In this document: one piece after another, positions 6,620-36,769 of the stretch | Position numbering within the stretch: position 1 is the first letter of the stretch | Layout of the letters: the number at the start of each line of letters is the position of its first letter | From: Escherichia phage EcS1 | Sequence record: NC_055721.1 | DNA length: 64,000 nt | Direction: 5' to 3' (one strand) | Program-made: the position numbers and the translations under genes | Notes under the pieces: generated by a model | What the model was told of the DNA's origin: nothing | Database searches by the model: none | Seen by the model: the letters and a program-made list of their open reading frames with translations, nothing else

Positions 6620-6639
6620 TTTATATCTCCAGTTTGTTA

Positions 6640-6680: not shown

Positions 6681-6687
6681 CTTTAGA

Positions 6688-7086
6688 TTAAATTGTTCCG
6701 AAGTGCTTTGGTTTTGCTTTGCCTAAGTCTTCTAAGTTACTGATTTCAACCCAAGCAAAATCACCTTGGAATACAATGTTAGCATAATCACCATCAACTA
6801 GAGTACACAAAGCATACAATTCCTGGCCTTTTTGATGACCATCATTTGAGACGATGGATTCTTTTGTTTTAACATAATGTCCTTCAAGAGAAGGATTAAT
6901 AAGAGTTGCAAACTTACGACGGACATAACCTACTTGACCATTATCTGCTTTGATAACGAGTTCATCAGCAATACCACCAGCGGTAGCCCATGGACGGATA
7001 TCAAGAACTACACCTTGCAGACCTTTGATGCATGAACGAGAAGCAGAAGAAACTTGTACACGAGAACCAACAATAATATGAGACAT
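6688..7086 (-). CDS. hypothetical protein
   Basis: 132-aa ORF just downstream of dexA; no recognisable motif. Confidence 0.45.
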   Translation of the reverse strand: MSHIIVGSRVQVSSASRSCIKGLQGVVLDIRPWATAGGIADELVIKADNGQVGYVRRKFATLINPSLEGHYVKTKESIVSNDGHQKGQELYALCTLVDGDYANIVFQGDFAWVEISNLEDLGKAKPKHFGTI

Positions 7087-7096
7087 TCAATTCACC

Positions 7097-7780
7097 TTAG
7101 CGAGTTTTAGGAAGAGATAAAGGATCGGCATTACTTTCATCAGGGACTTCATCAAGTCCAAGTGCATACCGTTGAGCATATTTTAACATCAAAATATCTT
7201 TAGCACAATCGTGAATCGAATCATGCATAACGAAACCATTTAACGTGTCTGCTGGCAATGGAGTAGTAGACAAACCACGGACCATCGAATAACATTCAAT
7301 TGCTGTACGGATATCACGTTGATTCCAGAACTTACATGGTTCAGCAGTGAAGGTATCAATTTCTTCTTCAGCTACACCTGCATCACGTTGGATTTCACGG
7401 ATATGGTCAGTAAAGATTGGGAAGTCAAATGACATACCACGGCACCAACCTTGTGAATTCCATGCATCGACGCCTTGTTCTTTTAAGTACATCAAGGCTT
7501 CAGTGATGCCATCTACAATAGTCATATCATTTTCAGATGGGGCCAAGTTAGCTCGTGCTTCTGCTGACTGCCCTTTCCACCATTTGATGGTTCCTTTAGA
7601 GAACGTACGATGACCTTTCTGTGCAGCAAGATTAAATTTAATACGCTTACCACGAGCCACAAGTTCATCAAATGTTTCTACGACAGTCGGATCGGCATTA
7701 AAGGCAATTAACGCAAGGTCAATTACTGCTGCATTAGGTGTTGACCCGAAGGTCTCATAGTCAATTGTAAAATCAATCAT
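7097..7780 (-). CDS. dexA: exonuclease A (DnaQ-like 3'-5' exonuclease)
   Basis: 227 aa, same length and position as T4 DexA; N-terminal DxE-type exonuclease motif (IDFTIDYETFG). Confidence 0.8.
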   Translation of the reverse strand: MIDFTIDYETFGSTPNAAVIDLALIAFNADPTVVETFDELVARGKRIKFNLAAQKGHRTFSKGTIKWWKGQSAEARANLAPSENDMTIVDGITEALMYLKEQGVDAWNSQGWCRGMSFDFPIFTDHIREIQRDAGVAEEEIDTFTAEPCKFWNQRDIRTAIECYSMVRGLSTTPLPADTLNGFVMHDSIHDCAKDILMLKYAQRYALGLDEVPDESNADPLSLPKTR

Positions 7781-9644: not shown

Positions 9645-10351
9645 ATCTTACCTCTAATCAATTGAATCATATTAGCACTCAGAGGAAGACCTTTCACAAT
9701 TTTCTTTTTGTCTAACCATGAAAGATTTTCAAAACGAGTCAAACCTTTGATTACTATATCATAAGAATGAACAGTTTCTTCAGCTTTAGAAGCCTTAGGC
9801 TTTTTCATAATTGGATTGGCTTTATGGCCTTTCATAAGACGTTTGATTTCAGATTCACCACCAATGATACGGGCCGACAAGCCTTTCTTCATTTCTTCAG
9901 GAAGACCTTTTTGGCTCAGATGTGCCTTACGTTTATCGATATTAGCCTGGATACGATTAATAGTTTTCTTGGCTTGTTTTGAAAGCTCACATGTACCATC
10001 AGAGACTTCAGCTTCTTTAGCATCTACTGAACGAACAATACGGCCAGCGATTTCATCTCGTTTTTGGATAAGTTCAAGAAGTTCAAAGTCACTACGAGCC
10101 TTGTTATACTTTTGCTTAACTGGGATGACATTACCTTCGATATAACCTAAAGCATTGTTGAAACGTTCTAACGTGAGCTTGTCATCTTCTTTATTATCGT
10201 TAAAGAGCTCGCCTGAGTACGCACAGCGGCTTTGAGTGACAACATTTGTTAGATACTTCAATGAAAGATTAAACTCTTTAGAGCGGCGACTAGCGCTATT
10301 ATACGTATTCACTAGACGGTTAGCTATGATAACTTCTTGTGGTTTAGCCAT
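9641..10351 (-). CDS. hypothetical protein with degenerate HNH-like motif and basic C-terminal half (srd position)
   Basis: CAYSG...LTLERFNNALGYIEGNV...N..K resembles an HNH finger lacking the catalytic His; identity with T4 Srd not verifiable by eye. Confidence 0.4.
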   Translation of the reverse strand: MAKPQEVIIANRLVNTYNSASRRSKEFNLSLKYLTNVVTQSRCAYSGELFNDNKEDDKLTLERFNNALGYIEGNVIPVKQKYNKARSDFELLELIQKRDEIAGRIVRSVDAKEAEVSDGTCELSKQAKKTINRIQANIDKRKAHLSQKGLPEEMKKGLSARIIGGESEIKRLMKGHKANPIMKKPKASKAEETVHSYDIVIKGLTRFENLSWLDKKKIVKGLPLSANMIQLIRGKM

Positions 10352-10395
10352 AATATTATCCTCAGATGCTTCAAGTTAAAATGTGGTATAATGAA

Positions 10396-11004
10396 TCAAG
10401 GTCTTTTCGATTCTATCATAACAGTTACTTGGGTGTAAATAGAATCAATAGCTGTTTGATCTAGAATTATCAATTCACTTCCTGCTGGTATCATCCACTC
10501 ATCTTCTCTATTAACCATATCTAACTTATCACCACGGTCAGTAGTTCCAAAAGGTGAACTTCTAGGTCTAAACTCAGATTCTGGCGCAGCCAGCAACATA
10601 TTGATCATTTCTTGTTGAAAGTTAAATGCTTTAGGGGCATCTATAAGCTTTAAAATTGTACGTGTTTCATATACATAAGTGCCTGCGAACTGACGAGCCA
10701 TGGCAAAATCAGTCGTGAACGACGTAACACGATGACCAGTATTAAAAGTATCGCCAATATCAAGGTCTTGGATTTGACGTAATGTAGAGTGACTTATGCC
10801 ACGATACAATTCATCTGGGGCTCTTGATAAACGAGAAGAAATAACTTCATTCAAGTTCTCATGGAACTTAGGCAATAACTTATCATTCATACATTGCCAT
10901 AAGATACTTTGTTCCCAGTCATCATAACCTGAGATTAATTCTTCATAAAATGGGACTTTTGATTCATCAAATTCGATATAAGTATAAAGCATGATGTCCT
11001 CCAC
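10396..11004 (-). CDS. ADP-ribosyltransferase, ModA/ModB-like
   Basis: 202 aa, length and position of T4 ModA/ModB; R-S-E triad context (ELYRG, VTSFTTD, EDEWMIP). Only one mod copy present. Confidence 0.65.
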   Translation of the reverse strand: MEDIMLYTYIEFDESKVPFYEELISGYDDWEQSILWQCMNDKLLPKFHENLNEVISSRLSRAPDELYRGISHSTLRQIQDLDIGDTFNTGHRVTSFTTDFAMARQFAGTYVYETRTILKLIDAPKAFNFQQEMINMLLAAPESEFRPRSSPFGTTDRGDKLDMVNREDEWMIPAGSELIILDQTAIDSIYTQVTVMIESKRP

Positions 11005-12568: not shown

Positions 12569-13104
12569 TAATAGCCTCTGTCTTGTCGAGCAAAATTCTC
12601 TGCATTTTTCAGATAATATAGTTCGAAGATTTCTTTTGAATCCATACCAAGAGCCATGAACATATTCAACACGAAATGCATGATATCAATCATTTCGAAT
12701 TTAATTTCGAGTTGGTCAGCATTAGTCATATTAGAAATCTTTTTGGCGTTAGCTTCTATGTGACGTGCTTTCCATTTTTTCCATACGGCACTTGCATCTT
12801 TATCACCACGAGACATTTCACCAAGAGATGTAATCAGTTCTTGGAACTCGTCATCAATACACATTTTCTGGTCACGCAACCAATTTAATACTTCACCAGC
12901 AGTTTCTAGCGAATCTGGGTGACGATTAGTGAAAGGTTTATCTTCAGCCAAACGGACTTGTAAAGATTTCTGCATGTCAAGCATAACCTGCAGAGGGTCT
13001 TTATGTTCTTGTACTAATGTGCTGTAATACACTTCTTTAGCTTTATCAGCACCAGCAATCAAACCACTACATTCATTAAAGTGAGCCATTTTATTTCCTT
13101 TCAA
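12568..13104 (-). CDS. 56: dCTP pyrophosphatase gp56 (MazG-like)
   Basis: 178 aa, all-alpha MazG-like composition with acidic E..E..D motifs; position between soc and 61 as in T4. Confidence 0.75.
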   Translation of the reverse strand: MKGNKMAHFNECSGLIAGADKAKEVYYSTLVQEHKDPLQVMLDMQKSLQVRLAEDKPFTNRHPDSLETAGEVLNWLRDQKMCIDDEFQELITSLGEMSRGDKDASAVWKKWKARHIEANAKKISNMTNADQLEIKFEMIDIMHFVLNMFMALGMDSKEIFELYYLKNAENFARQDRGY

Positions 13105-17436: not shown

Positions 17437-17802
17437 TTATAATTGATACCATTTTGGTTTTATTTCACTTAATGCCTGTTGAATCTGTATCATAATACAT
17501 TTTTCAACGTGTTCGGCCAGTTCGGCTTTTCTTTCTTCAGATGGAGTCCCGAAATCAACAGTACATTCACCTTTTGGTGAAATATTAATCCCAGTAACAT
17601 ATACGATATGAGGAGTCCCATCAGGCAAGGTAAGCAATATTTCTTGCTTCACTCGACCCATAGACTCCTTAATTATTTTTAGAGACCTCTCATAGAAACG
17701 AGAGTCCTCGTTTGAGGACTCCTCTTCTGTTTCTACTTCGAAATTACTGAGGTCTGCTAAATCAGCATCAGTAACATTATTCATCTTCACCTGCGAAATC
17801 AT
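17437..17802 (-). CDS. 40: hypothetical protein at gene 40 position
   Basis: 121-aa acidic ORF between uvsX and 41; assignment by position only. Confidence 0.4.
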   Translation of the reverse strand: MISQVKMNNVTDADLADLSNFEVETEEESSNEDSRFYERSLKIIKESMGRVKQEILLTLPDGTPHIVYVTGINISPKGECTVDFGTPSEERKAELAEHVEKCIMIQIQQALSEIKPKWYQL

Positions 17803-18952
17803 CTAATTCGGATTCAATATCAGCAGCACTGACGCCTTTTGATTCAGGCACAATGAACTTTTCAACTTTAGACATAATCAAATCATCAACTTCAGCATCA
17901 ACTGTAGCGTTAGAATCGATTGCACCTAATTGATAATGACGTTTGATTGCTTCACGGAATGGTTCATGTTTGAACAATGGAGACCAGAACTCAGTTGAGC
18001 TTGTGTCTTTTGCTCGCCATGATTTTTCTTCACGAATCATTTCACCCGTTTCGATGTCAAGATATTCACGTGAATACCAACCATTCTTAGGTTTAACAAC
18101 AAAGCCTAAGGTCTGAGCCATATCAAGTAGACCAGAATAAGGGTCAATACCACCATCAAATTTAACGTCAATAAAGAACTTAGATTTCTCTTTAACCGCA
18201 CGAGATTTCTCTGCATTCAATACGAACTGGAAGCCTTCAAGTTCTTTACCGGCTTCTTTAATCTGACGTTTACCAATAATGAATACGGTGTCAGCAGAAT
18301 ACATCACACCGGTACCACCAGTCATGACAGTCTTACTAAACATTTCCATAGTTTCGATGGTATGGTTAACCGCAACACAAGGGATGTCTTTAATACTGAA
18401 GAACGGAGTAACGATACGGAACAGAGACTTCAGCTGCTTAGCACGAGTCATATCGGCTACAGTTTTCTCGTTCAATGCATCTTCTGTTTCTTTCTTAGAA
18501 GCCATATTACCAATTGAGTCGATGAAGATAATAACCTTCTCACCACGTTCAATTGCTTCAAGTTGGTTTACCATATCAATCTTCAGTTGTTCTACTGACT
18601 GGATCGGTGTATGGATAACACGTTCTGGGTCAACTTTCATTGCACGCAGATAAGCTTCAGAGATACCGAATTCACTATCATAGAACAGACAGATAGCTTC
18701 TGGGTATTTGTTCATGTATGCTGAAACCATCGTTAAACCCATGTTGGATTTAAAGTGTTTAGAAGGACCAGCAAAGATTGTTAAGCCTGATTGCATACCA
18801 CCATCAAGGGCACCAGAGATTGCGATATTCAGCATCGGAATCTTTGTACGAACCACATCTTTATCATTGAAGAACTTTGACTTAGTCAGTTCAGCAGTCA
18901 TTTTAGAGGTGGATGCTTTAATCAGACGAGATTTCAGGTCAGCGAGTGCCAT
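17777..18952 (-). CDS. uvsX: UvsX recombinase (RecA-like)
   Basis: 391 aa; long identical runs with my recollection of T4 UvsX (DLKSRLIKASTSK.TAELT.SKFFN.KDVVRTKIPM.NIA.SG, GPSK.FKSN.GLTMVS.YM). Confidence 0.95.
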   Translation of the reverse strand: MALADLKSRLIKASTSKMTAELTKSKFFNDKDVVRTKIPMLNIAISGALDGGMQSGLTIFAGPSKHFKSNMGLTMVSAYMNKYPEAICLFYDSEFGISEAYLRAMKVDPERVIHTPIQSVEQLKIDMVNQLEAIERGEKVIIFIDSIGNMASKKETEDALNEKTVADMTRAKQLKSLFRIVTPFFSIKDIPCVAVNHTIETMEMFSKTVMTGGTGVMYSADTVFIIGKRQIKEAGKELEGFQFVLNAEKSRAVKEKSKFFIDVKFDGGIDPYSGLLDMAQTLGFVVKPKNGWYSREYLDIETGEMIREEKSWRAKDTSSTEFWSPLFKHEPFREAIKRHYQLGAIDSNATVDAEVDDLIMSKVEKFIVPESKGVSAADIESELDDFAGEDE

Positions 18953-19036: not shown

Positions 19037-19579
19037 CTATTTGGCCCACTTGATAATGCTTGTGATAATTGAATTGCGAGATGCAGGATAAATGCCTTCT
19101 ACATTATTTGAATCGTCATGTTTCAAGATTTGTCTGATACTTAAATCGTTATCATCTGCGAATTCATGGAATGATTTAATAATTTGGTTAAAGCCAAATG
19201 GGCTCAATGAGATCAAATCATCTTCAAAATCTGTTTTGATTTCATTACGAGTTAGAATCAATGTATAAACTTTGTGATTATCAATTAATCGATTAAAGTC
19301 CACTTCGTACTGTTCAACACATTTCTCATTGCGTAGTTTACCATAAACCCAATTACTGATATAACCACGATCTAATAGATAGATTTTGCTAGAATCGAGA
19401 TAATTTAGCATCGTTTCGAAGCAAGATACTTCATTACGACTTTTGATATCAAATCGACCATCATCTGTACGTTTTGGGAAGTCAATGAGCTCATAACGAT
19501 CAGAAATTTGACAGATATCACGAATCAATGTTGTTTTACCAGCATTGTCAGGTCCGTCAATATAAATTATTTTAGCCAC
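19037..19579 (-). CDS. P-loop kinase-like protein (nucleotide/sugar kinase fold, substrate unknown)
   Basis: 180 aa; Walker A GPDNAGKTT at residues 8-16; sits where T4 has beta-glucosyltransferase. Confidence 0.5.
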   Translation of the reverse strand: MAKIIYIDGPDNAGKTTLIRDICQISDRYELIDFPKRTDDGRFDIKSRNEVSCFETMLNYLDSSKIYLLDRGYISNWVYGKLRNEKCVEQYEVDFNRLIDNHKVYTLILTRNEIKTDFEDDLISLSPFGFNQIIKSFHEFADDNDLSIRQILKHDDSNNVEGIYPASRNSIITSIIKWAK

Positions 19580-20478
19580 AAATCACCTTCAATAATGATG
19601 TCTTCACGTTTAGGAATGTTGTATGGAGAATGAATGTTACACCGAAAGTAAACAAGTTCTGCTAGTCCAGGATGAAACACCTTTTCAGGGTTTTCATTAT
19701 ACAAGATAACAGGAGTTGCTTTTAACACACGATAATATTCTTTCTTGTTCAACTTGATAAGATGTATTTTATCATAGTTATACTCAGAAGCATCATATGT
19801 ATCATTTGGGTCAGTGATATACAAGTCAAGGTTTAAACCCTTACAAGTTCTAATGACCTTTTTGAAGTTATAACATTTATCACTAATACGGAATGGATGG
19901 AATACACCCTTAAACTTGATAGGGTCTGTGTTGCGAGAGAACGTCTGCATGACGTCAGGATTAATTACTCGCTGTGAGACTATAATCTTATCTTCATCTG
20001 CGCCGTATGCAACCAGGGTATCTTTCTGACACTTGTTCAACACAAATGTACGAAGGCTTTGATTCACTGATAGAACATCAAGATCAATAAACTCATCAAT
20101 GTAATACCGTTCTACTTCACGGTCTTTAGTGATATTGAAATTATAGATGACTTCATTTTTACCTGGATAACCTGTGATATCAGTCACAAGATGAGCACAA
20201 TCAAAGTAATCCATTAATGAATCGATGACAAACCAGTTCTCTTCCCAGAAATGCTTACGAGATTCATATGCATTATCTTTATACCAGACAGGACAGAATG
20301 TGATTTCAGGGAACAGTTCTCTCAACTCTTCTTCGTCATCATTATTCTTTGGAATACAAATGATGTCACCGGGACTAGCCCGGTGTAATTGGAGTTGAAA
20401 GTTACCGTCTTTAAGAATAGCATAATTACCAGTTTCGTAAGAACGCATTGAAAAGATAGGAACGATCAATTTAGCCAT
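19567..20478 (-). CDS. hypothetical protein; positional candidate for hmC sugar transferase
   Basis: 303-aa ORF with start overlapping gp42 stop; no motif I can assign by eye; occupies the bgt locus. Confidence 0.4.
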   Translation of the reverse strand: MAKLIVPIFSMRSYETGNYAILKDGNFQLQLHRASPGDIICIPKNNDDEEELRELFPEITFCPVWYKDNAYESRKHFWEENWFVIDSLMDYFDCAHLVTDITGYPGKNEVIYNFNITKDREVERYYIDEFIDLDVLSVNQSLRTFVLNKCQKDTLVAYGADEDKIIVSQRVINPDVMQTFSRNTDPIKFKGVFHPFRISDKCYNFKKVIRTCKGLNLDLYITDPNDTYDASEYNYDKIHLIKLNKKEYYRVLKATPVILYNENPEKVFHPGLAELVYFRCNIHSPYNIPKREDIIIEGDLWLK

Positions 20479-21176
20479 TATTTTAAGAACCTTTTAACAT
20501 AATCAAAGTCACGCTCAAAGACGTGGGCTGACACCATAGAGTGAGTGTATGAACCCATTTTAACACCACATTCATCAGCAATATATTTCATCAATTTCTG
20601 CTGAAGATAAAAATCAAGTTGCATAACTACAGCACAGTTCTGAGAACGCATATGACAGTGAGTATGAAGACGATCATCACGGATATAATACGTTATGGAA
20701 TCCGTGCAAGGGTATTCTAGGGTCTCATCACTATCAAGCAGTGTTTGGTCGCTTGATTCGAGAATCTGGAACACAACACGTCGCGAGTTAGGCTTCTCTT
20801 TAAGTTCTTTGAGAAGGGTTGGTAACTGGGCAACAATACGAGGTCCATAAAAAGTGTTGAAGTTTGCAGGCAATGTGTCACTTTTTGGTTTTGAAATGAA
20901 TTTAGCAACATTAGGATATTCCTTAAATGCTTCTACTGCATCAGTACCACCAGAAATCATGAATTGCCAGAATGATTCAGCGTAATCATAATCGATACGA
21001 TTGATACGTTCGTCTTGGAAGATGGCAGATTCTGGTTCGAACACTTCAATTACTGCCGAGCCAATTTCATGACATCGACCTATACGAGAATCAGTCACAA
21101 AATCTGGTGACTTCAAGATGAGCTCATTCATCTCTTTAAATGCTTCTTCAAACGTCCAGGCTTTAACTGAAATCAT
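20478..21176 (-). CDS. 42: dCMP hydroxymethylase gp42 (thymidylate-synthase fold)
   Basis: 232 aa; PCTDSITYYIRDD and MRSQN...D match the T4 gp42 catalytic Cys region and the cytosine-specifying Asp; NSRRVVFQ resembles the phosphate-binding SRR. Confidence 0.8.
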   Translation of the reverse strand: MISVKAWTFEEAFKEMNELILKSPDFVTDSRIGRCHEIGSAVIEVFEPESAIFQDERINRIDYDYAESFWQFMISGGTDAVEAFKEYPNVAKFISKPKSDTLPANFNTFYGPRIVAQLPTLLKELKEKPNSRRVVFQILESSDQTLLDSDETLEYPCTDSITYYIRDDRLHTHCHMRSQNCAVVMQLDFYLQQKLMKYIADECGVKMGSYTHSMVSAHVFERDFDYVKRFLK

Positions 21177-21517
21177 AGTACCTCTTGTCGTTTTTTACTT
21201 TCATTAAAAATAAATTGATAGATCGATTTTAACTCATCAGGAACTGCAGCGAGTTTAAATGCTTCGACTTCAAGGTTCTCGACAGGAAGATTATGTTTCT
21301 TCTTCAAGGACCCAATAGCATCGGTAACTTTAAATCGACGTTCTAACAACTTATGCATTTCATAATCAATGTCTTCAATTTCATTACGCATTACATTGAG
21401 AAGTCGAGAAGGACTTGGCTTGACATCAAATGGATTATAAGTTGCTGGGTCTTCTCCCGCCTGAATACGGCGGGATTTAATAGAGATTTCGTTCATCATA
21501 TGGTTGATACGTCTCAT
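21173..21517 (-). CDS. AroQ-type chorismate mutase-like protein
   Basis: 114 aa; LLNVMRNEIEDIDYEMHKLLERRFKVTDAIGSLKKKHNLPV...ES...Q follows the CM_2 pattern; start overlaps gp42 stop (ATGA). Confidence 0.55.
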   Translation of the reverse strand: MRRINHMMNEISIKSRRIQAGEDPATYNPFDVKPSPSRLLNVMRNEIEDIDYEMHKLLERRFKVTDAIGSLKKKHNLPVENLEVEAFKLAAVPDELKSIYQFIFNESKKRQEVL

Positions 21518-22773
21518 TCTGGGTACCTCATTGCGTCGTCTGCATTATCAGTAATTGATACAATCTGGATTGAATTCAGTGGCATATCGTTCTTAGATAA
21601 TTGTCGTTTGTAATAACGTTCACAATAAGTACAAGTTGAACCACAGACTTCATTAGCACAATCAAAGTCAGGATGTTTGAACCAACGTTTCTTCAAGAAG
21701 CCATCTAACAATGATGTTTCAATATTCACTGTGTGTTGATAGTCAACTTCAGATTCATTAGTATAGATCGTTTCTAGTGGCTTCCAGAGCTCAAGGAGGT
21801 TACCTTCGAAATGTTCTGATGAATAAGCTTCCAGAACTTTCATGATGTACTCTGTTGACCCTGTACGTCCTGACACTTTGAACTGAGTGATACCAATGTC
21901 ACGATACAACGCTAAATCTTGTGGACGTACAAAACGTGTACGAAGCCAGTTGAATGGGTCAGTGTCTCGTGCTTTGATACAGTGCTGCATCGGATACCCA
22001 TCTAACTTCTGGGCATCTTCTGATGTGATATCAGTAGAGTGGAAAATATAACATGAATCACGATAGCTACAATGAGTGGTATAACCTTTGCCTGCGTTAG
22101 AACAGAATTCATTAACCAGGATTTCAAAGATAATGCCAGCTTCATTACAATATTTCGCAGCTTGTTTCAAGAATGATACGCTACGGTTCTTGTGAATACC
22201 ACAACACACTTTTTTGATGTTGTATTGTTCATGAAGATACTTAATCTGAGTTACCGCATCTACGTGCAGGATAGTCGAGATTTCGAATTCGATTTCAGTA
22301 TTAACTTCACGAACGATTTGCATTACGATTGGGTTAGCAACAGTAATACGATACACACCGATTGACCACAAGTACTGGACATATTCTTGGATAGCTACTT
22401 TCTTCCAATCGTCGAGTTCACGTTTAGAACCAGGGTTAATGCTGTTGAACGTGTAGTTGAAGCAAATACCAAGTTCATTACAACGAGCAACATATTCTTC
22501 TAATTGAGAATTTTTTACATCAGGAAGACGAAAATCAGGGCGAGCAGCAACGAAGGCCATTTCACGAGTTGACCCATAGACTTCATTAATCAATGAATCA
22601 GGGTTCTTAGCATTCAACTCTACAATTTTATCCAGTAGAGCCAAGTCAAAGTTAGTACCAATTTTAAAAGTTTGTTTTTGCATTTTCATCTCTTTTAAGC
22701 AGGAAAAGGATGCGATGTCTTTTGCAGGCTTGTTACAATTAAGGTTTATATGGAGCGTGATGTTCGAAAACAC
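21514..22773 (-). CDS. U32-family protein (putative prephenate-dependent hydroxylase; Cys cluster)
   Basis: ANPIVMQIVRE, FKVSGRTGSTEY and EFCSNAGKGYTTHCSYRDSC align with TrhP/YegQ-type U32 motifs; C-terminal CxxxCxxCxxC. Caller start is GTG; ATG at 22687-22689 (MKMQKQ) is likelier. Confidence 0.55.
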   Translation of the reverse strand: MFSNITLHINLNCNKPAKDIASFSCLKEMKMQKQTFKIGTNFDLALLDKIVELNAKNPDSLINEVYGSTREMAFVAARPDFRLPDVKNSQLEEYVARCNELGICFNYTFNSINPGSKRELDDWKKVAIQEYVQYLWSIGVYRITVANPIVMQIVREVNTEIEFEISTILHVDAVTQIKYLHEQYNIKKVCCGIHKNRSVSFLKQAAKYCNEAGIIFEILVNEFCSNAGKGYTTHCSYRDSCYIFHSTDITSEDAQKLDGYPMQHCIKARDTDPFNWLRTRFVRPQDLALYRDIGITQFKVSGRTGSTEYIMKVLEAYSSEHFEGNLLELWKPLETIYTNESEVDYQHTVNIETSLLDGFLKKRWFKHPDFDCANEVCGSTCTYCERYYKRQLSKNDMPLNSIQIVSITDNADDAMRYPE

Positions 22774-23098
22774 CTTTTTGCATTAATGATTTGAATGTAT
22801 CAGGACGCATAGCTTTGTCATCGATAATCCAATCATACGCAGGTTTGTGAGTCATAAGTTCATGATATCTGAGTCCGATCTTTTCCAGATTCTTGACTAG
22901 ACCAGGAACTATTTCAACAGAGATACGACCAGGACCACATGATGTCATACCACGAGCAGTGTAGAGGACAATTATATGACCTTCATCATAAAGCTTATTA
23001 ATCATAGACACCATGACGGTGTCCGGATGAAAGTTTTCATAATCACGATTACTATTCCAATGAGTAATCGTGTTATCAATATCAAAGCAAATACGCAT
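22739..23098 (-). CDS. HAD-superfamily phosphatase
   Basis: Likely start ATG 23096-23098 overlapping upstream stop (TAATG): MRICFDIDNTIT (DxDxT), YTAR, IIDDKA. Confidence 0.6.
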   Translation of the reverse strand: MRICFDIDNTITHWNSNRDYENFHPDTVMVSMINKLYDEGHIIVLYTARGMTSCGPGRISVEIVPGLVKNLEKIGLRYHELMTHKPAYDWIIDDKAMRPDTFKSLMQKGVFEHHAPYKP

Positions 23099-24777
23099 TA
23101 GATAGGTTCCCACTGATGTTTGATATCACCACCGACAGGACGATATTCTACACCAGTTTCTTTATCAAGCAGAACCCATTTGCCTGGGTTCTTAGTGATT
23201 AACGTAGCCACAACCGGTTCAGCTTCATCAAATGAAACTGTATCATCTTGAAGTCTACGGCCCATTTTACGTAACTGTTTTGTTAGTAGCATCATGCCAT
23301 AATAATATGCAGCAGTTGCTTTCAATGGGTTGTTCTTGAAATAACCACCAAGTGCAATCCAAATAATGGCTACAGCAAGATGATGATATTCATTGAACAT
23401 ATCAGTCTTTTCATATTTGTATACTAAAGGAGCAATATTGACCCAAGCATTTTCATCATCAATGGTAAGGCCACCCCAAGCATGATTAGCATTAAAACTA
23501 TCATAGCCAGAAATAGCATAAAGAACTTTTGCTTCATCATACAAACGAGGGCCATAAATTTCAGTCTCGCCAAAGTAGCCACGAGGGTCAATGAACCGGA
23601 CTTTGCCGTCATATTGAATCATGGTATTGCTAAAGTTAGGGTCACCATGAATAACTGAATACTGACGGCCTTGAGTTTCATGATGATGATAAATCAAATG
23701 AGATAATGCTTGTTTGAGCATTGGTTTCAAACGTCCAAGTTTAACACCATTAACATGGGTTATTTTGCCGAATGAATTCACTACACCTTGAATACTTTCG
23801 CAACGGTCAATAACCTTAGTGTAGAACTCTTTAGTGAAGTCACGTTCAATTGTATTTTCAGAAGCATATACTTCATTACCAAAGTTTAATGCTTCAAGAA
23901 TGTCTTCAATTTTATTAAACTGGTGGTCTGCTGGTAAACCGTACAACCATTCAAATGCTGGAAGACCTTTAATGCGTTCCATTACAAAACTATTTTCTGT
24001 AACGGCTTCGATAAATGGTGTAGCATCAGAACTAACTGAACGATACCAAGATAGTTCTTTCTCTTGGAGTTTTTTACCTTGCTCAGTTACTGCAATCTTT
24101 TCTACAGTATGTTCATGCATTTCAACAGAGTTAAAACTACGGTTCAGTTCACGATCTTTGTGCGCGTCATGAAGCTTAATCATATCACCTAAATCAATAA
24201 GATTTAGAAGTTCAGAATAAGTGAATACTTTAGGGTAGATAAATTCTACAAAGTCTCGTCCACGACAAGCATCATGAATTTCTTCTTTGCTTTCGCCTTG
24301 CCAGAATTCCCAATCTCTGAATTGATAGATTCCAACTACGTTACCACCAGTGTCACCTACGTTTTTAATTGAATCACCGTCGAACTTATAACGACATTCA
24401 TTACCTTTAACATAGATCGCATTTTGGTCCCAAGACCATGAACCAAAGTCAGGAATAATGTCGCACCAGTTAACGATTACATTATGACCTTCAAGGAACT
24501 TACTCATCGTAGCTAATGCATAAGCAGAACCGTATGCTTCATCTACTGTATGAACAATGATATTCAAACCTTCTTGTTCGGCATAAGCCACTACAGTTTC
24601 AGCGAATTTTGAATGCACGACTACATAAATTTCATCTGCACCAAGGTCTGCATAGATGTCATGCAAGTTCTTTAAGATTGTATGTTGTTTGTAGTTAACC
24701 AACACCTTTGGGATATGATGTGTAACTGGATACAAACGAGTTGCTAATCCAGCTCCTAGAATAACTGCCTTTTTCAT
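23098..24777 (-). CDS. bifunctional sugar-1-phosphate nucleotidylyltransferase / APH-type sugar kinase
   Basis: 559 aa; N-terminal MKKAVILGAGLATRLYP (RmlA/MurU-like); C-terminal IHGDPNFSNTM and FIDPRG (aminoglycoside/choline-kinase fold). Confidence 0.65.
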   Translation of the reverse strand: MKKAVILGAGLATRLYPVTHHIPKVLVNYKQHTILKNLHDIYADLGADEIYVVVHSKFAETVVAYAEQEGLNIIVHTVDEAYGSAYALATMSKFLEGHNVIVNWCDIIPDFGSWSWDQNAIYVKGNECRYKFDGDSIKNVGDTGGNVVGIYQFRDWEFWQGESKEEIHDACRGRDFVEFIYPKVFTYSELLNLIDLGDMIKLHDAHKDRELNRSFNSVEMHEHTVEKIAVTEQGKKLQEKELSWYRSVSSDATPFIEAVTENSFVMERIKGLPAFEWLYGLPADHQFNKIEDILEALNFGNEVYASENTIERDFTKEFYTKVIDRCESIQGVVNSFGKITHVNGVKLGRLKPMLKQALSHLIYHHHETQGRQYSVIHGDPNFSNTMIQYDGKVRFIDPRGYFGETEIYGPRLYDEAKVLYAISGYDSFNANHAWGGLTIDDENAWVNIAPLVYKYEKTDMFNEYHHLAVAIIWIALGGYFKNNPLKATAAYYYGMMLLTKQLRKMGRRLQDDTVSFDEAEPVVATLITKNPGKWVLLDKETGVEYRPVGGDIKHQWEPI

Positions 24778-24815
24778 ATGTTTTCCTCATTTAAGTACAT
24801 CCATTGTACCATCAT

Positions 24816-24959
24816 TTAATTAAAGCACTGGAACTTAGCTTGTAACCAAAGCATGACCCAAGCAACCATAAGTGTAGGAATCATTACTGGAGTCATGATA
24901 CTCCAGTAAATAGTTGCGCCAAAGAATAACAATAATAAAAATATGGCTAGATATTTCAT
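24816..24959 (-). CDS. small hydrophobic membrane protein (47 aa)
   Basis: Unlisted ORF MKYLAIFLLLLFFGATIYWSIMTPVMIPTLMVAWVMLWLQ...; ATG overlaps the isomerase stop (TGATG). Confidence 0.35.
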   Translation of the reverse strand: MKYLAIFLLLLFFGATIYWSIMTPVMIPTLMVAWVMLWLQAKFQCFN

Positions 24960-25585
24960 CAGTCACCGCGCAATTGAGCACCTAATGCACCACCTGGATG
25001 GAAGCGTAGGAAGTCGTCAGGAGTAAAGCCACGTTCGGCTGAAAGGTTAATTGCAAAGGTATCAATCAGAGCCAAGAGCAACGTCGTGGACATTGTAGGC
25101 GCCAACTTATGCTCATCAATCTCAACTGCCTTGCCTGTACAGAAAGTATAGTCAAACAAAGCTAGTACACCAGAATTCAAATCAGGATTGCAATGTAAAA
25201 GGATTTGTTTAACACCAGGACGAATTCTTCGTAGATGTTTAACCACCCCAATCATTTCTTCAGTCTTACCAGAACGAGAGATATGAATCAATACATCATC
25301 AGGACCAATGAAACCTGCATCGCCATGAGAATAATGTCCAGTGTTCAAGTAAAGACTTGGAATACCCAACGAGGCCATTGTTTCTGAAGCCTTAGTGGCG
25401 ATATTAGCGTTTTTACCTACGCCGGTGATGATTACACGGCCTTTGTAATCGGAGAGCCCAGGGCCACGCAGGCATTGCAGTATTTGATTATACGAGTTCT
25501 CATGGTCAACTACAATATCAGATAAAGTAATAAGAGCTGAAGTTTGTAGTACTAAAGCATCTCTTGCACGTAAAATAGGATTCAT
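24959..25585 (-). CDS. D-arabinose-5-phosphate isomerase-like SIS-domain protein (KdsD/KpsF-type, no CBS pair)
   Basis: GRVIITGVGKN, HISRSGKTEE, LAPTMSTT, FHPGGALG align with KdsD; likely start ATG 25583-25585 (MNPILRA) overlapping the upstream stop. Confidence 0.75.
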   Translation of the reverse strand: MNPILRARDALVLQTSALITLSDIVVDHENSYNQILQCLRGPGLSDYKGRVIITGVGKNANIATKASETMASLGIPSLYLNTGHYSHGDAGFIGPDDVLIHISRSGKTEEMIGVVKHLRRIRPGVKQILLHCNPDLNSGVLALFDYTFCTGKAVEIDEHKLAPTMSTTLLLALIDTFAINLSAERGFTPDDFLRFHPGGALGAQLRGD

Positions 25586-26001
25586 TAGATATTTTCTTCC
25601 ACACATTTATTAACTGTTGAGTAATAATTACTAGCAGCATTCACATAAGTATTTTTATGGAGTTCTGCAGCTTTATAATCGCCTGATTCAAGAGCAACGG
25701 AATAATTATATTCGATCTTAGATAGTTTAACATCAATTATCTGTTGACATTTACGAGCTAATGCTGAACGTTTCTCTGCATTTGTTGTTCTGAGCAATGC
25801 TTCACGTTCACCTGGAAACTCAACACGTTCTACTTTCATGTTCGCGTACTTATCACAGTTACCACCACATTGATTAGATACACGTTCGTAGATAAGCCCA
25901 GTTCCACCTTTGAATTTAAGATTCCCGTCATAAGGCTGGTTGATATTTGTTCCAGCACATCCTACAAGACTTAATGATAATGCAATGATTAATAGTTTCA
26001 T
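25585..26001 (-). CDS. putative lipoprotein (imm/imm.1 position)
   Basis: MKLLIIALSLSLVGCAG: signal peptide with lipobox; 138 aa, Cys-containing mature part. Confidence 0.5.
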   Translation of the reverse strand: MKLLIIALSLSLVGCAGTNINQPYDGNLKFKGGTGLIYERVSNQCGGNCDKYANMKVERVEFPGEREALLRTTNAEKRSALARKCQQIIDVKLSKIEYNYSVALESGDYKAAELHKNTYVNAASNYYSTVNKCVEENI

Positions 26002-26049: not shown

Positions 26050-28761
26050 TTAGAAATCAAACATATCAAACAATGTTGCTTTCTTCTCGTAGTCAATCTT
26101 AGCAGCATCAGTGAATGATGTCAGAGGTTTAGTGAATGTCTTCGCGAACAGAGCTGGGAAGTCAATCCACTTCAGAACTTCAGAACGAATCTCTGGTGTG
26201 ATGTCTGAACCTGATGGCCAACTGATGCATGTATCACCAAATGGGTTCTGTTCTTTAAGTGGAAGAACCATAACCTTTTCACCTTCAGTAATAGAAGGAA
26301 CGTTAGGCATACCTTTGGTTGCACGGTTATAAGTCAAAATGCCACGAATATGATACGGACATTTAGGACCAGGATAACCTTGGTTGTCATACTTCATGAT
26401 GTTGTTCGCACTTGACACTGCAGCGATCGTTTTATAGTTTTGCTGACGGAATTCGTGTTCGAATTCTTTAAAGTAAGTTTGTAACGATTCTTCACCTTCT
26501 TGAAGCATACGTCTGATACATTCTTTCAATGCTTTCTGACATGCTTTAGGAGTACTTGATTTCTGAGTTTCTAGACCCATGATTTTGAGTTTAGGTTCAG
26601 CGTATCGGGTCCCTTCCATGTCCCACACATTCAGTGCATATCGTTTCTTAGCAGTCCAGAAACCGCCAATACCTTTAGAACCAAGTGGTGGTCCTGAAAT
26701 AGCTTCACGGTCCATGAACATCAAATGTTCTTTGTTGTTCATGTATTCACACATTTCACGGAAACCTTTATCAATAGCTGGTTCGAGTTTATCTTTACCA
26801 AACTTATCTAGGAAGTCTACTAAATGGTTCGTATCACGGAAACGATCTTCACCTACTTTTTCTACTAACTTATCAACACAAATATAAACTGAGTCAGTGT
26901 CACCAGCGATAACATAACTATGACCTTCAGTTCCTACAACCGAGTTCATATATTCGTTAATCTTACGTTCAATCCATTGGATTGCCATTTGACCAAACAA
27001 TGTGATTGCAGATGCATTACGCAAGTCGTAATAACGGAACCATACGTTACCAAGTGCACCATAAAGTGAGTTGATAAGTAACTTACGGTTAATCTGTGCT
27101 GTGTTACCTGCGATAGAAGCACGGTCGCATTTATCAAGCAAGGCTTGTAATGATTCTTTGGTCAGACAACCTAGAAGTTCTTTCATTTCATCAGTGAAGT
27201 CTTTATTGTATGTGAATTCTTCGATACAATCTTCATTACCAAACGAAGTATGTTGTAACTTCTCTTTAACAAGTTCCATGTTACGCTGAGCGCCAAGCAT
27301 ATAACCTTTATGCTCTTTACGTTGTAAGAACACCTTAGTGATTTCTTCTGGGATAACACCTTGGTAAGTCTTGTCATACATCCAGCCATTAGGAGAACAT
27401 GAATATTCATCCGAAGGACGTGGTGCAGTCTTATTGATGTAATCATGAATAGGATGTAATTGGAACTGTCCAGCCAATGTTTCTGGGCTGATATTAACTT
27501 GACGAATGATACTTGGGTACAGAGATGTTAAGTCACAAGACATAATGTACTTGTAGCTATTCGGAACAGGTTCTTTTACGTACGCACCTGGATAGCTTTG
27601 CTTAACATGTGAACGACATTGTGGAATAACTTTCTTCTTGGTCTTCAATGAGTTGAAAATGATTGCGTCCCATGTTTTAATAGGACTAAACACAGATTGA
27701 ATCTGCATCTTAGCATAATAACCCATTGACAAGCTCAAGTTAATGAACTGTCGTTTCTGGTCAATTCGTTGCACACGTTCAACGTCAATAATGTTATAAG
27801 AAATATATCGTTGATGGTTTGTTTCACGCAACTTATTAATTGGACCATCATAAGCCAGCTTACCTTCACCTAATTCATATTCTGCTACATAGTCAAGTGA
27901 ATATGAAGGTTGGTTTGTGAAACTGAATTTCTTATAGAGTTCGATGTAATCTAGATGGCTGATACCATAAATCTGAATTACTTCACGTTCACCATACATG
28001 TTCTGGATAATTTTAGACTTAGTACGTCGATGTGGAGATAACCGATTCGCAGTCTTTTCACCAAACACATTTTTAATGCGGTTATAGATGTAAGGGATAT
28101 CAAATGATTCGGTGTTCCAACCAGTGAAAACAACTGGAGTCTTTTCAGTCCAGAGGTTCAGATATTGAAGTAGAAGTTCTTGTTCATCTTCACATGGGAT
28201 GTAAACAACCTTATCAAGAATTCGTTGTGGAACTGCATCGCCACCTTCGCTTTCAGGAAGACCAGCTCGTTTAATGTCCCAACGAGTTACGTTGCCATAA
28301 GGAGAATTCAACAGGTCGAACACATAGTAACGGTCGTCAATTGAGTCATAGTGTGTAATAGCATCAATTGGATAGTTCGCCTGGGATGGATCAGGGAACT
28401 CAGGAGCAGTTACTTCGATGTCACAGTTAGCAACACGAATCAAACGATCGTCATAATGAATGTCTTTGCTATAAGTGTCAGACAGATAGGCTAACTTAAA
28501 GTCATCCATACCCATCGCATCTAGACCCATGTCTTCCATACGACGAATCCAGTTATTTGCATCACGCATATTAGGGAACGTTTTCTTAACACAGCCCTTA
28601 CCATAGATATCAAGATATTTTGTAGCTTGCCCTTGTGGACCATGCATGAACAGATTAGGTTCATATTTCACTTCACGAGAACGTTCTTTACCTGAAGAGT
28701 CAATATAACGTTCGTATAATGTGTCACCAACTTGTTCGATAGTTAAATAGAATTCTTGCAT
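26050..28761 (-). CDS. 43: DNA polymerase gp43 (family B)
   Basis: 903 aa; closely matches my recollection of RB69/T4 gp43 (MKEFYLT.EQ.GD...ERYID, YGDTDS, KKRYA, SLYPSII). Confidence 0.95.
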   Translation of the reverse strand: MQEFYLTIEQVGDTLYERYIDSSGKERSREVKYEPNLFMHGPQGQATKYLDIYGKGCVKKTFPNMRDANNWIRRMEDMGLDAMGMDDFKLAYLSDTYSKDIHYDDRLIRVANCDIEVTAPEFPDPSQANYPIDAITHYDSIDDRYYVFDLLNSPYGNVTRWDIKRAGLPESEGGDAVPQRILDKVVYIPCEDEQELLLQYLNLWTEKTPVVFTGWNTESFDIPYIYNRIKNVFGEKTANRLSPHRRTKSKIIQNMYGEREVIQIYGISHLDYIELYKKFSFTNQPSYSLDYVAEYELGEGKLAYDGPINKLRETNHQRYISYNIIDVERVQRIDQKRQFINLSLSMGYYAKMQIQSVFSPIKTWDAIIFNSLKTKKKVIPQCRSHVKQSYPGAYVKEPVPNSYKYIMSCDLTSLYPSIIRQVNISPETLAGQFQLHPIHDYINKTAPRPSDEYSCSPNGWMYDKTYQGVIPEEITKVFLQRKEHKGYMLGAQRNMELVKEKLQHTSFGNEDCIEEFTYNKDFTDEMKELLGCLTKESLQALLDKCDRASIAGNTAQINRKLLINSLYGALGNVWFRYYDLRNASAITLFGQMAIQWIERKINEYMNSVVGTEGHSYVIAGDTDSVYICVDKLVEKVGEDRFRDTNHLVDFLDKFGKDKLEPAIDKGFREMCEYMNNKEHLMFMDREAISGPPLGSKGIGGFWTAKKRYALNVWDMEGTRYAEPKLKIMGLETQKSSTPKACQKALKECIRRMLQEGEESLQTYFKEFEHEFRQQNYKTIAAVSSANNIMKYDNQGYPGPKCPYHIRGILTYNRATKGMPNVPSITEGEKVMVLPLKEQNPFGDTCISWPSGSDITPEIRSEVLKWIDFPALFAKTFTKPLTSFTDAAKIDYEKKATLFDMFDF

Positions 28762-34004: not shown

Positions 34005-35026
34005 TGGTTCTGTACCTCAACATAAAGTTGCTTAGATAATGCTTTCAAAGATTTAATATCTTCTTTAGATGCATCAGGCAGAGCTTCAATATATTCTTCC
34101 ATTAGTTCAAACAAACTCTTGACTTCGATTTCTTCATCGTCATCTGATTCGACAGAGTTATCAACCTTTGAAACAACACGTAATGAATGAACTACTTTTT
34201 CAAGTTCTGATTCGAACTTAGTAAGCTCTTTATCGACTTTTTCAACGATAACACGAACTGCAAGATTTTTAAAGTCTTCGAAGTTTATTGTGTCGTTTGG
34301 ATAGAAGATTTTTCTGTGCCAAGTAGTTTCATTGGGAATGAAATCCATGGAGCCCTTGGTTGTATCTTGAACCCAGAAACCTCGAGGGTCGTTTTCGTCA
34401 CCTGCTGTAAGGGTCCAAGGAGTACCGATATATTTGACGTTAGAAGCTTCACTGATAGTGTGGAAATGACCGGACCACACTTGTTTGTATTTTTTGAGGA
34501 AGTCTGGTTCGAGCCCATGAGATTTCATTCCTTTATAGAAGTAAAAGCCATTCAGCTCCCAGTGACCAATACAATATTCAGCAGAAGATGTACGAATATG
34601 CTCTAAGATTTCGGTTGTGTTTTCATCGCACATCCATGGAATCAAGTCAATCAGCGTACCGTCGAATTCCATTGTCATTGGTTTTTCAACAACAGTGATG
34701 TTTTTATACTTACCAAGAACTTCTGTTGCAGCATTAGGCGTCAACGTGTTCTTATAATGCATGTCGTGGTTTCCGACAATAGTAATTAAATGAATATCTG
34801 CTTCATCTAATCTTTCAGCAATTTCACGAGCGAATTCCATACACTTATGAGTAATAGCTTTTCGGACATCAAATATATCACCATATTGGATAATAGTTTT
34901 AATGTTGTGTTTCTTTGCGTAATCGATATGGTCTTGAATACCTTTACGCTGAATTTCTTGGACCCATGGGTCATCTGCCTTTACACCTAAGTGCCAATCA
35001 CCAGAATGTATAATTTTCATGTTCAC
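34001..35026 (-). CDS. 47: recombination nuclease subunit gp47 (SbcD/Mre11-like)
   Basis: 341 aa; calcineurin-like phosphoesterase motifs (HSGDWHLG, GNHD, GHWE/GHFH). Confidence 0.9.
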   Translation of the reverse strand: MNMKIIHSGDWHLGVKADDPWVQEIQRKGIQDHIDYAKKHNIKTIIQYGDIFDVRKAITHKCMEFAREIAERLDEADIHLITIVGNHDMHYKNTLTPNAATEVLGKYKNITVVEKPMTMEFDGTLIDLIPWMCDENTTEILEHIRTSSAEYCIGHWELNGFYFYKGMKSHGLEPDFLKKYKQVWSGHFHTISEASNVKYIGTPWTLTAGDENDPRGFWVQDTTKGSMDFIPNETTWHRKIFYPNDTINFEDFKNLAVRVIVEKVDKELTKFESELEKVVHSLRVVSKVDNSVESDDDEEIEVKSLFELMEEYIEALPDASKEDIKSLKALSKQLYVEVQNQ

Positions 35027-36024: not shown

Positions 36025-36330
36025 TTATTCCGGTTTATAATTTAATTCAACGAAGAAACCTTCGTCATTAACTTGGTACTCGTAAGAAAGGACTCCCGAT
36101 TCGGTCGTTATTTCTTCTATACCAGGATTCTTGGGGTCAATAATAATAGGTAACTTTTCGATATCCCTTAGATACATTTTAAGTAAATAAGGAATAACGT
36201 TTTGGTCACCTACTTCTTCTAGGAACCCATTGAGGTTAAGCTTGAGCCTCATATAAAAAATCCAATGCATTATCATCTTCAAGATCAAGTGCTTTATCTG
36301 ACCCTGGCACTTTAACAAGAGATGATTCAT
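36025..36330 (-). CDS. hypothetical protein
   Basis: 101-aa ORF directly downstream of gene 55 (overlapping its 3' end). Confidence 0.35.
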
Positions 36331-36769
36331 ACTGCGTCATTTTATCGTAGATGTCCTGAATAAAGGTTTCATCTGCTAACGCAACCATATCATCGTCACG
36401 TGCGTCATACACATTGTGAACGAAATAGCTGTATTTCTTCGCGACTTCACGACGTTCTTTTTTGATACGTTGAACAAAGGCGTTGAAACAAGCCTGGGTT
36501 ATATACGCATGTGGGTTGTTGTACTTAGTTTCGTCGAAGTTTTTAAGACCTTTAATTGCAGCCTCAATACCGTCTTCAATCATTTCTTGCTTCCAGGATT
36601 GGGTATATCCAGAGAAGTTAAAACGTTTTGAAAGACCTTCTGAAATAAGCATAATAGCTTCACCAATCTTATCTGTCATTCGAACTAACGAATCAGGTTC
36701 GAGAGCACATCGTCTTTTCCAATCACAGATTTCAAGATAAAGCTCTTTATTATTTACATAGTTTGCCAT
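36236..36769 (-). CDS. 55: late sigma factor gp55
   Basis: Near-identical stretch to my recollection of T4 gp55 ([72 protein letters not shown]). Confidence 0.9.

Follow-up and report, generated by a model that had tools for sequence, protein, structure and literature searches.

Here we ask what is built by the genes between uvsX and DNA polymerase gene 43 of Escherichia phage EcS1 (NC_055721.1), from which a stretch of 64,000 nucleotides was analyzed (hereafter, the window), and why a chorismate mutase and a protein of the U32 family should be encoded among them. In T4, this interval holds segA, b-gt, 42, imm and imm.1, of which an earlier note on the EcS1 DNA had named b-gt, 42 and imm. That note read the EcS1 interval as an RB69-type cassette for sugar-nucleotide synthesis and DNA glycosylation, making a nucleoside diphosphate (NDP)-arabinose by way of an isomerase, a HAD phosphatase and a kinase/nucleotidyltransferase fusion, and in this respect our analysis agrees with it; its gene inventory left out the chorismate mutase, the U32 protein and a small membrane open reading frame (ORF) of 47 amino acids (aa). 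Judged from its sequence, the interval is very probably an arabinosyl-5-hydroxycytosine DNA hypermodification locus of a Winklervirus-like T4-type phage. The cassette as such is already known, adding one more case to a pathway that was elucidated in 2025-2026. For the chorismate mutase and the U32 protein we tentatively propose, at a probability of roughly 45%, that they provide a second, O2-independent and prephenate-dependent route to 5-hydroxycytosine or 5-hydroxypyrimidine in phage DNA, next to a thymidylate-synthase homolog that would hydroxylate dCMP at C5 with flavin and O2.

The chorismate mutase and U32 genes

The two genes account for 1.6 kb of the 7-kb interval, and the start of the chorismate mutase gene overlaps the stop codon of the U32 gene:

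21173..21517, minus strand: predicted AroQ-class chorismate mutase, 114 aa, with a CM_2 domain at residues 37-113
21514..22689, minus strand: U32-family protein, 391 aa, matching Pfam Peptidase_U32

The product of the first gene appears to be an AroQ (type II) chorismate mutase. It matches Pfam CM_2 (5e-12; 46 bits against a cut-off of 27) and the chorismate mutase of PDB entry 1ybz (8e-8), and when copies from five phage genera were aligned, the catalytic residues of E. coli PheA (R11, R28, K39, E52, S84 and Q88) were all conserved, with overall identity across phage genera falling to 34%. A CM_2 gene also adjoins the U32 gene in Serratia phage LC53 and in phages MY02, Pm5461 and Thanatos-2.

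The second product was read as 391 aa from an ATG at 22689, in an open frame that reaches a GTG at 22773. It is assigned to the U32 family by Pfam Peptidase_U32 (7e-11; 42 bits against a cut-off of 22), and comparison by hhalign with E. coli RlhA, TrhP, UbiU and UbiV gave a probability of 96.3% (E = 1.7e-9, 207 columns). A sequence search of the PDB returned no significant match; the AlphaFold2 model, with a predicted local distance difference test score (pLDDT) of 91.3, has its best structural match there in 5d88, the only solved U32 protein. Ten cysteines are invariant in an alignment of 41 sequences of the family, including four in the Fe-S motif region (C196, C207, C213 and C237) and four in a C-terminal CX4CX3CX2C motif, and E189 aligns with RlhA E161 and TrhP E162, which are essential in those proteins (PMC6599085). 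Across T4-like genera, the U32 protein is 79-93% identical, compared with 62-91% for gp43, making it the most conserved protein of the region. Since synonymous sites have diverged as far in its gene as in gene 43, with third-position identity at four-fold degenerate codons of 0.40-0.48, the same as or lower than in gp43, this conservation is best explained by purifying selection; on the same figure, recent horizontal transfer was rejected as its cause.

All genetically characterized members of the U32 family have been linked to hydroxylation rather than proteolysis (PMC10990095). RlhA forms 5-hydroxycytidine in rRNA and TrhP forms 5-hydroxyuridine in tRNA, both independently of O2 and with a need for prephenate (PMC6599085), and UbiU/V hydroxylate ubiquinone precursors, with prephenate shown as the oxygen donor (PMC10990095). 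E. coli combines, in TrhO/TrhP for tRNA 5-hydroxyuridine and in UbiIHF/UbiUV for ubiquinone, a U32 protein with an unrelated O2-dependent hydroxylase that yields the same product. Because the U32 and chorismate mutase genes of EcS1 lie beside a predicted O2-dependent cytosine C5 hydroxylase, they match this cellular pattern of paired enzymes, suggesting a hydroxylase role. With RlhA and TrhP, the phage protein would share pyrimidine C5 as its target and the link to prephenate, here by way of the chorismate mutase; its proposed substrate is a deoxynucleotide or DNA, unlike the RNA or quinone of RlhA, TrhP and UbiUV. In such a route, the chorismate mutase would raise prephenate, and the U32 protein, as an Fe-S enzyme, would use it as the oxygen donor for hydroxylating pyrimidine C5 without O2, which would allow DNA modification during anaerobic growth of the host. 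An anaerobic ribonucleotide reductase is likewise encoded in the window, at 40269-42008 (nrdG and nrdD, the latter 42% identical over the part compared), and counts in favor of the anaerobic reading.

In the study of the RB69 pathway (Lee et al., NAR 2026, PMC13326640), the U32 protein gp50 is labelled only "sugar or heterocycle reductase" in Table 1, gp49 is undiscussed, and the words U32, chorismate and prephenate are absent. A search of the full-text literature, which did not cover He et al. (2026) or Mahler et al. (2025), returned nothing that links U32, prephenate or chorismate mutase to phage DNA modification.

U32 proteins in other phages and in cells

To survey these genes, IMG/VR was scanned once with the U32 family and once, as the reciprocal test, with the family of the thymidylate-synthase homolog, and the flanks were searched with the window proteins, including the 303-aa glycosyltransferase described below (GT303). 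Among T4-like loci, U32 and the homolog occur together in 15, and the homolog occurs alone in 12, half of which are JS98-like (6) and half of which resemble the clusters of Acinetobacter phages (6). The viral loci outside the T4-likes divide as follows:

U32 only: 33 loci, with a GT303-family transferase nearby in 23/33
Thymidylate-synthase homolog only: 20 loci, with a GT303-family transferase nearby in 11/20
Both U32 and homolog: 0 loci

The U32-only and homolog-only sets share no contig names, and their exclusivity looks as if one hydroxylase had been replaced by a non-orthologous one upstream of a common transferase. In the scanned loci, the GT303-family transferase usually adjoins, and is sometimes fused to, a P-loop kinase, and U32 loci often also hold an enzyme resembling AfhE, the nucleotidyltransferase/kinase fusion of phage HY126 (16 loci), a KdsC-like HAD phosphatase (16) or an isomerase (9).

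Six U32 loci encode a 3-deoxy-D-arabino-heptulosonate 7-phosphate (DAH7P) synthase, which in at least four is fused to a chorismate mutase. It stands directly beside U32 as such a fusion in L042 (8344-9399) and L053 (11070-12188), and beside U32 without a chorismate-mutase domain in L032 (9384-10130). Among named cellular homologs, those closest to the phage fusion all belong to the Bacteroidota. We considered whether this neighbor, a DAHP_synth_1 protein, might be a 3-deoxy-D-manno-octulosonate 8-phosphate synthase using arabinose 5-phosphate, and rejected the idea given the NCBIfam scores (221 bits for DAH7P synthase vs. 67) and the fusion to chorismate mutase; the phage DAH7P synthase is an auxiliary shikimate-pathway gene. 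Since chorismate mutase or its fusion with DAH7P synthase adjoins U32 repeatedly and independently, prephenate chemistry is suggested.

In six viral loci, the kinase, GT303 and U32 genes occur with neither an AfhE-like enzyme nor an isomerase within ~7 kb. Loci L037, L038, L043, L049, L060 and L007 have the order kinase-GT303-U32-DNA polymerase III alpha; sugar-activation genes are absent from them, and a dCMP deaminase gene is close by. This context may reflect a different sugar or a modification based on 5-hydroxyuracil. With a dCMP deaminase in the vicinity of some of the U32-only loci, the modified base could be uracil instead of cytosine. Pfam searches of the small ORFs flanking U32 in L007 and L008 gave nothing useful.

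Close relatives of the U32 protein are also found in cells, where a scan of one genome per prokaryotic species returned eight: an isolate of Phocaeicola faecalis and metagenome-assembled genomes of Tannerella, Romboutsia (two), Lachnospiraceae, Erysipelotrichales, an unclassified Bacillota and candidate division BRC1. They come mostly from lineages of anaerobes. In the P. faecalis isolate (FXJYN30E22), U32 belongs to an element on scaffold 17 (L116), and no glycosyltransferase was recognized next to it. Three of the eight loci combine U32 with a chorismate mutase and the transferase, two of these with the kinase as well, and the thymidylate-synthase homolog was found at none of the cellular U32 loci. 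At the other end of the distribution stand phages of Acinetobacter, with an AfhE-like enzyme in 57 phage records and no apparent member among the 220 U32 phage records by a tally of organisms. The clusters of Acinetobacter phages DLP3 and AM101 and of Dhakavirus JS98 share the thymidylate-synthase homolog, the GT303 transferase, the kinase, the HAD phosphatase and the kinase/nucleotidyltransferase fusion with EcS1, and differ from it in having neither U32 nor chorismate mutase; the Acinetobacter phages add two glycosyltransferases, and JS98 also lacks the isomerase. As part of the same tentative proposal, phages of facultative anaerobes would carry both routes, those of strict aerobes such as Acinetobacter the homolog only, and a large set of phages of obligate anaerobes (Bacteroidales, Clostridia and Erysipelotrichales, many of them jumbo phages) only U32 together with the same glycosyltransferase. 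This resembles the phyletic split of TrhP and UbiUV, in which anaerobes have the U32 route alone and facultative organisms have both (PMC6599085, PMC10990095).

Several observations weigh against a prephenate-dependent hydroxylase. The phage U32 proteins form a separate, divergent subfamily, distinguished from RlhA, TrhP and UbiUV by the extra C-terminal CX4CX3CX2C motif and with only 14-23% identity to the characterized hydroxylases (BLASTP E = 0.023 to RlhA); their cysteine spacing departs from the canonical CX6CX15CX3/4C, and MAFFT and hhalign disagree on which cysteines correspond. RlhA and TrhP themselves still await a direct in vitro demonstration of hydroxylase activity (PMC6599085). 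In RB69, gp49, the small ORF that follows U32 (10170-10409 of the RB69 locus), shows neither a recognizable CM_2 domain nor the catalytic residues, and RB69-type phages may rely on host PheA/TyrA. Dhakaviruses such as JS98 infect E. coli with a cluster devoid of U32 and chorismate mutase. Since JS98-type coliphages do without both, the module is dispensable in a facultative anaerobe, and a strict rule that phages of such hosts always carry U32 was rejected on the same grounds. The survey itself covered ~10 kb on each side of a metagenomic locus and detected the thymidylate-synthase homolog by pattern, so that a distant copy could be missed, and the hosts of viral contigs were inferred and their physiology taken from taxon names.

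Two other roles for the pair deserve consideration. The U32 protein could act on a sugar or another small molecule, tailoring the arabinose donor, with the chorismate mutase as an unrelated metabolic gene. This would suit the place of U32 among sugar-activation genes, the TIM-barrel fold common to many sugar enzymes and the label given to RB69 gp50 (PMC13326640, Table 1). We regard it as unlikely: in the six kinase-GT303-U32 loci without AfhE or isomerase, U32 tracks the transferase and not the sugar pathway, Acinetobacter phages and Dhakavirus make the same type of cluster without U32, and the linkage to chorismate mutase or to its DAH7P synthase fusion recurs.

T4-like phages commonly carry tRNA genes of their own, which counts toward the second role, namely, hydroxylation of cytosine or uracil in the rRNA of the host, or in tRNA of either host or phage, as a means of tuning translation. 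Likewise, the only characterized U32 proteins directed at pyrimidines act on RNA (PMC6599085). We nevertheless consider this less likely still. Across unrelated phage lineages, U32 is embedded beside the DNA glycosyltransferase-kinase module and arabinose-donor genes; in the sampled viral loci it accompanies that DNA-glycosylation module and not the T4-type 5-hydroxymethylcytosine (hmC) loci, and outside the T4-likes none of them has it together with the dCMP hydroxylase. Moreover, the phage protein is without the long C-terminal extension of RlhA (391 vs. 653 aa). A DNA-directed, prephenate-dependent hydroxylation therefore remains our preferred, if tentative, account of the pair.

Probable modified base, arabinose donor and transferase

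From uvsX (17777-18952) to gene 43 (26050-28761) runs an unbroken row of minus-strand genes, many of them overlapping, over ~7 kb, and every ORF named in the earlier note is present in it on that strand. Domains were called on the cassette proteins by Pfam, NCBIfam and PHROG profile searches, and orthology was assigned by protein identity to named phages. Apart from the pair described above, the genes discussed are:

19037..19579, minus strand: P-loop kinase, thymidylate-kinase-like, 180 aa, ortholog of RB69 gp45
19567..20478, minus strand: predicted GT-B fold glycosyltransferase, 303 aa, ortholog of RB69 gp46:47 "arabinosyltransferase 1"
20478..21176, minus strand: predicted 5-hydroxy-dCMP synthase of the thymidylate-synthase superfamily, 232 aa, ortholog of RB69 gp48
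22739..23113, minus strand: HAD phosphatase, 124 aa, ortholog of RB69 gp51 and analog of HY126 AfhF
23098..24777, minus strand: nucleotidylyltransferase/kinase fusion, 559 aa, ortholog of RB69 gp52:53 and analog of HY126 AfhE
24816..24959, minus strand: small hydrophobic membrane ORF, 47 aa, RB69 gp54-like, read directly from the sequence
24959..25606 (likely start 25585), minus strand: putative single-domain SIS arabinose-5-phosphate isomerase, 215 aa, ortholog of RB69 gp55
25585..26001, minus strand: lipoprotein-like protein, 138 aa, with a signal peptide and a lipobox-like Cys
12571..13089, minus strand, outside the cassette interval: gp56 dCTPase (tblastn with RB69 gp56, 70% identity, 173 aa)

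In RB69 and Acinetobacter phage DLP3, cytosine is replaced by mono- and poly-arabinosylated 5-hydroxycytosine with the sugar ether-linked at C5, an assignment that for RB69 rests on nuclear magnetic resonance, mass spectrometry and 18O2 data, and RB69 gp48 makes 5-hydroxy-dCMP from dCMP with O2 and flavin (PMC13326640). LC53 is counted among the phages with arabinosylated 5-hydroxycytosine as well (Mahler et al. 2025, as cited in PMC13326640). The thymidylate-synthase homolog of EcS1 (Pfam Thymidylat_synt 7e-15) is 78% identical to RB69 gp48 and 72-91% identical across T4-like genera. Its matches in the PDB are 9IQU/9IQC (E = 4e-122, 79% identity) and T4 gp42 (1b49; E = 3e-8, 26%). An alignment to ThyA of E. 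coli and gp42 of T4 shows that it retains the catalytic Cys146 (YPCT) and carries the substitutions L143E, D169N (MRSQN) and N177D (QLDF), whereas T4 gp42 keeps D169; D169N was proposed by Lee et al. as diagnostic of the hydroxylating branch of thymidylate synthases (PMC13326640). By these features the protein belongs to the branch of flavin/O2-dependent 5-hydroxy-dCMP synthases and is not a dCMP hydroxymethylase, and the acceptor base of this phage would be 5-hydroxycytosine carrying an ether-linked arabinose rather than hmC.

The earlier note had held that gp42 was kept here, that arabinose was transferred to hmC, as in the RB69 group, and that the donor was made by way of free arabinose (arabinose 5-phosphate to arabinose, arabinose 1-phosphate and NDP-arabinose). 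The part of this that stands is membership of the superfamily and the dCMP-specifying Asp, and RB69 DNA was itself first reported as arabinosyl-hmC (PMC6024577). The hydroxymethylase model is nevertheless very improbable as a whole. With 26% identity to T4 gp42 against 79% to 9IQU, and with D169N, the protein is not gp42 as the note meant it; the RB69 data show an ether link and a 5-hydroxycytosine base (PMC13326640), the earlier assignment of arabinosyl-hmC has been called erroneous (PMC13390438), and the HY126 enzymes, as summarized in PMC13326640, phosphorylate arabinose 5-phosphate before dephosphorylating it. For the arabinosyl-5-hydroxycytosine locus that we favor, the gp56 dCTPase, an enzyme listed as a pathway member in Table 1 of PMC13326640, would remove dCTP and supply dCMP, so that only the modified nucleotide is incorporated; following hydroxylation, kinases would raise 5-hydroxy-dCMP to the triphosphate for the polymerase to incorporate. 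The slot and the logic are shared with the glucosyl-hmC system of T4 (a dCTPase, a thymidylate-synthase-family enzyme acting on dCMP and post-replicative glycosylation of DNA). The two differ in chemistry, with predicted hydroxylation by flavin and O2 and N in place of D169 here vs. hydroxymethylation with folate in T4, and in the sugar donor, which would be made by the phage itself here and is host UDP-glucose in T4.

The enzyme classes named in the earlier note for the donor genes are supported, and the motifs it quoted were found. The SIS protein (FHPGGALG, LAPTMSTT, SRSGKTEE) matches KpsF/GutQ (TIGR00393, 1e-32) and KdsD (8e-31), both under the curated cut-offs, since its 215 aa align to just ~155 of the 268-328 positions in these profiles; cellular KdsD/GutQ enzymes also carry tandem CBS domains. 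It falls in PHROG 5670 (9e-106) and is 73% identical to RB69 gp55, making it a putative KdsD/GutQ-type arabinose-5-phosphate isomerase. A heptose isomerase of the GmhA type, which the earlier note had named as a finding that would speak against its reading, received no support in the family scans. The HAD phosphatase (DIDNT) matches the EcbF-BcbF capsule-biosynthesis phosphatases (TIGR01689, 3e-13) and is 64-73% identical to the copies of RB69, JS98, AM101 and MY02. In the 559-aa fusion (GAGLATRLYP, HGDPNFSN), Pfam NTP_transferase covers residues 3-100 (8e-9), with weak EcKL and fructosamine-kinase matches at residues 307-407; the protein belongs to PHROG 4098 (3e-267), has tblastn matches in 370 phage records and is 41-76% identical across T4-like genera. 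The three are orthologous, at 64-73% identity, to RB69 gp55, gp51 and gp52:53, respectively.

The earlier note had regarded the donor route as not fully assigned. It has in fact been assigned in phage HY126 (He et al. 2026, cited in PMC13326640), where, as described in the citing paper, the kinase half of AfhE converts arabinose 5-phosphate into arabinose 1,5-bisphosphate, the HAD phosphatase AfhF removes the 5-phosphate to leave arabinose 1-phosphate, and the other half of AfhE yields UDP-arabinofuranose. By analogy, the EcS1 isomerase would make arabinose 5-phosphate from ribulose 5-phosphate, the kinase half of the 559-aa enzyme would produce the bisphosphate, the HAD phosphatase would take off the 5-phosphate, and the nucleotidyltransferase half would yield UDP-arabinofuranose; on this analogy the kinase acts before the phosphatase and free arabinose is not an intermediate. 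An arabinose-5-phosphate isomerase gene is missing from the clusters of JS98, MY02, Pm5461 and Thanatos-2, which presumably use host KdsD/GutQ.

The 303-aa protein, an "orphan" in the earlier note, is a homolog of RB69 gp46:47. It falls in PHROG 3891 (1e-145), has no match in a Pfam search and shares 90% identity with the protein of LC53, 60% with that of JS98 and 62% with the frameshifted RB69 gene. Its AlphaFold2 model (pLDDT 93.6, predicted template modeling score 0.90) resembles, in a Foldseek search of the PDB, the GT-B proteins MshA (3c4q), sucrose-phosphate synthase (6kih) and UDP-N-acetylglucosamine 2-epimerases, the same templates as given for RB69 gp46:47 (PMC13326640). It is predicted to be a GT-B DNA arabinosyltransferase, orthologous to RB69 arabinosyltransferase 1, that would transfer arabinose onto the 5-hydroxyl in DNA, presumably the first arabinose on 5-hydroxycytosine. 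The P-loop kinase beside it (PHROG 761 "thymidylate kinase", 4e-35) shares 64% identity with RB69 gp45 and 73% with its LC53 counterpart. In unrelated phages, this kinase adjoins a GT303-family transferase or is fused to it, as in the single proteins of 550-606 aa of metagenomic loci L041 (2594-4411, 605 aa), L047, L052 and L061, and because the two are fused in some metagenomic phages, kinase and transferase probably act together.

Genomic setting and meaning

The nine co-oriented minus-strand genes of the cassette are syntenic, gene for gene, with RB69 gp45-gp55 and with LC53; the genes and their order between uvsX and gene 43 are the same as in RB69, the Afh system of HY126 and LC53, at 62-82% identity to RB69 and 70-93% to LC53. 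The nearest deposited phages, at ~82% DNA identity across the cassette, are Kosakonia phage Kc304, Erwinia phages Vettismorki, Gravdalen and Virsaitis27, and Serratia Winklerviruses CHI14, X20 and LC53. A seg-type homing endonuclease gene lies between U32 and the HAD gene in LC53, CHI14, X20 and the Erwinia phages (6483-7121 in locus L001); EcS1 differs in having none, and its U32-HAD gap is ~50 bp (22689-22739). The 47-aa ORF is 66% identical to RB69 gp54 by tblastn, and LC53 has an annotated 47-aa transmembrane ORF in the same place. The 138-aa lipoprotein-like protein, with the N-terminus MKLLIIALSLSLVGC, belongs to PHROG 1754 (2e-26), is 67% identical to its LC53 neighbor and weakly matches a family of type VI secretion system immunity periplasmic lipoproteins (1e-3, below the family cut-off). 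It is probably outside the modification pathway. Its gene adjoins gene 43, in the slot of T4 imm and imm.1, and the protein might be a superinfection-exclusion analog.

Homologs of T4 a-gt, b-gt, imm and imm.1 were not found by tblastn across the whole 64-kb window. In agreement with the earlier note, which had described alpha-gt as absent between genes 47 (34013-35020) and 55 (36245-36763), only ORFs of 117 aa or fewer lie in that interval. EcS1 differs from RB69 in its intact chorismate mutase, the RB69 gp49 counterpart being unrecognizable, and in that the window contains no homolog of the second arabinosyltransferase, gp3, whose place between rIIA and the topoisomerase gene is a gap of only ~0.8 kb (2169-2967). 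Because a gp3 homolog is missing from the window, the number of arabinoses added is not predictable from these 64 kb; the phage may attach just one arabinose, or additional transferases may be encoded beyond the window.

For the U32 protein itself, the least credible reading is that of a protease, which draws on the Pfam family name and on the "peptidase" and "collagenase" annotations of its homologs in GenBank, and which is opposed by the ties of genetically characterized members to hydroxylation (PMC10990095), by ten invariant cysteines suggestive of metal clusters and by a gene context of nucleotide and sugar metabolism.

The cassette mainly corrects annotation, in that the base would be 5-hydroxycytosine and not hmC and the "orphan" would be a transferase. 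The more valuable result is the overlooked pair of chorismate mutase and U32, the latter more constrained than the DNA polymerase. The distribution of U32 suggests that phages solve the O2 dependence of cytosine hydroxylation in the way that bacteria have for the hydroxylation of tRNA and of ubiquinone. Should this hold, the substrates of U32 proteins would include DNA precursors in addition to RNA and quinones, and the family would gain a small soluble substrate to work with. The DNA of U32-only phages would be glycosylated at a 5-hydroxypyrimidine, such DNA would be predicted in many phages of anaerobic gut bacteria, and the proposed route would explain how gut phages protect their DNA without oxygen.

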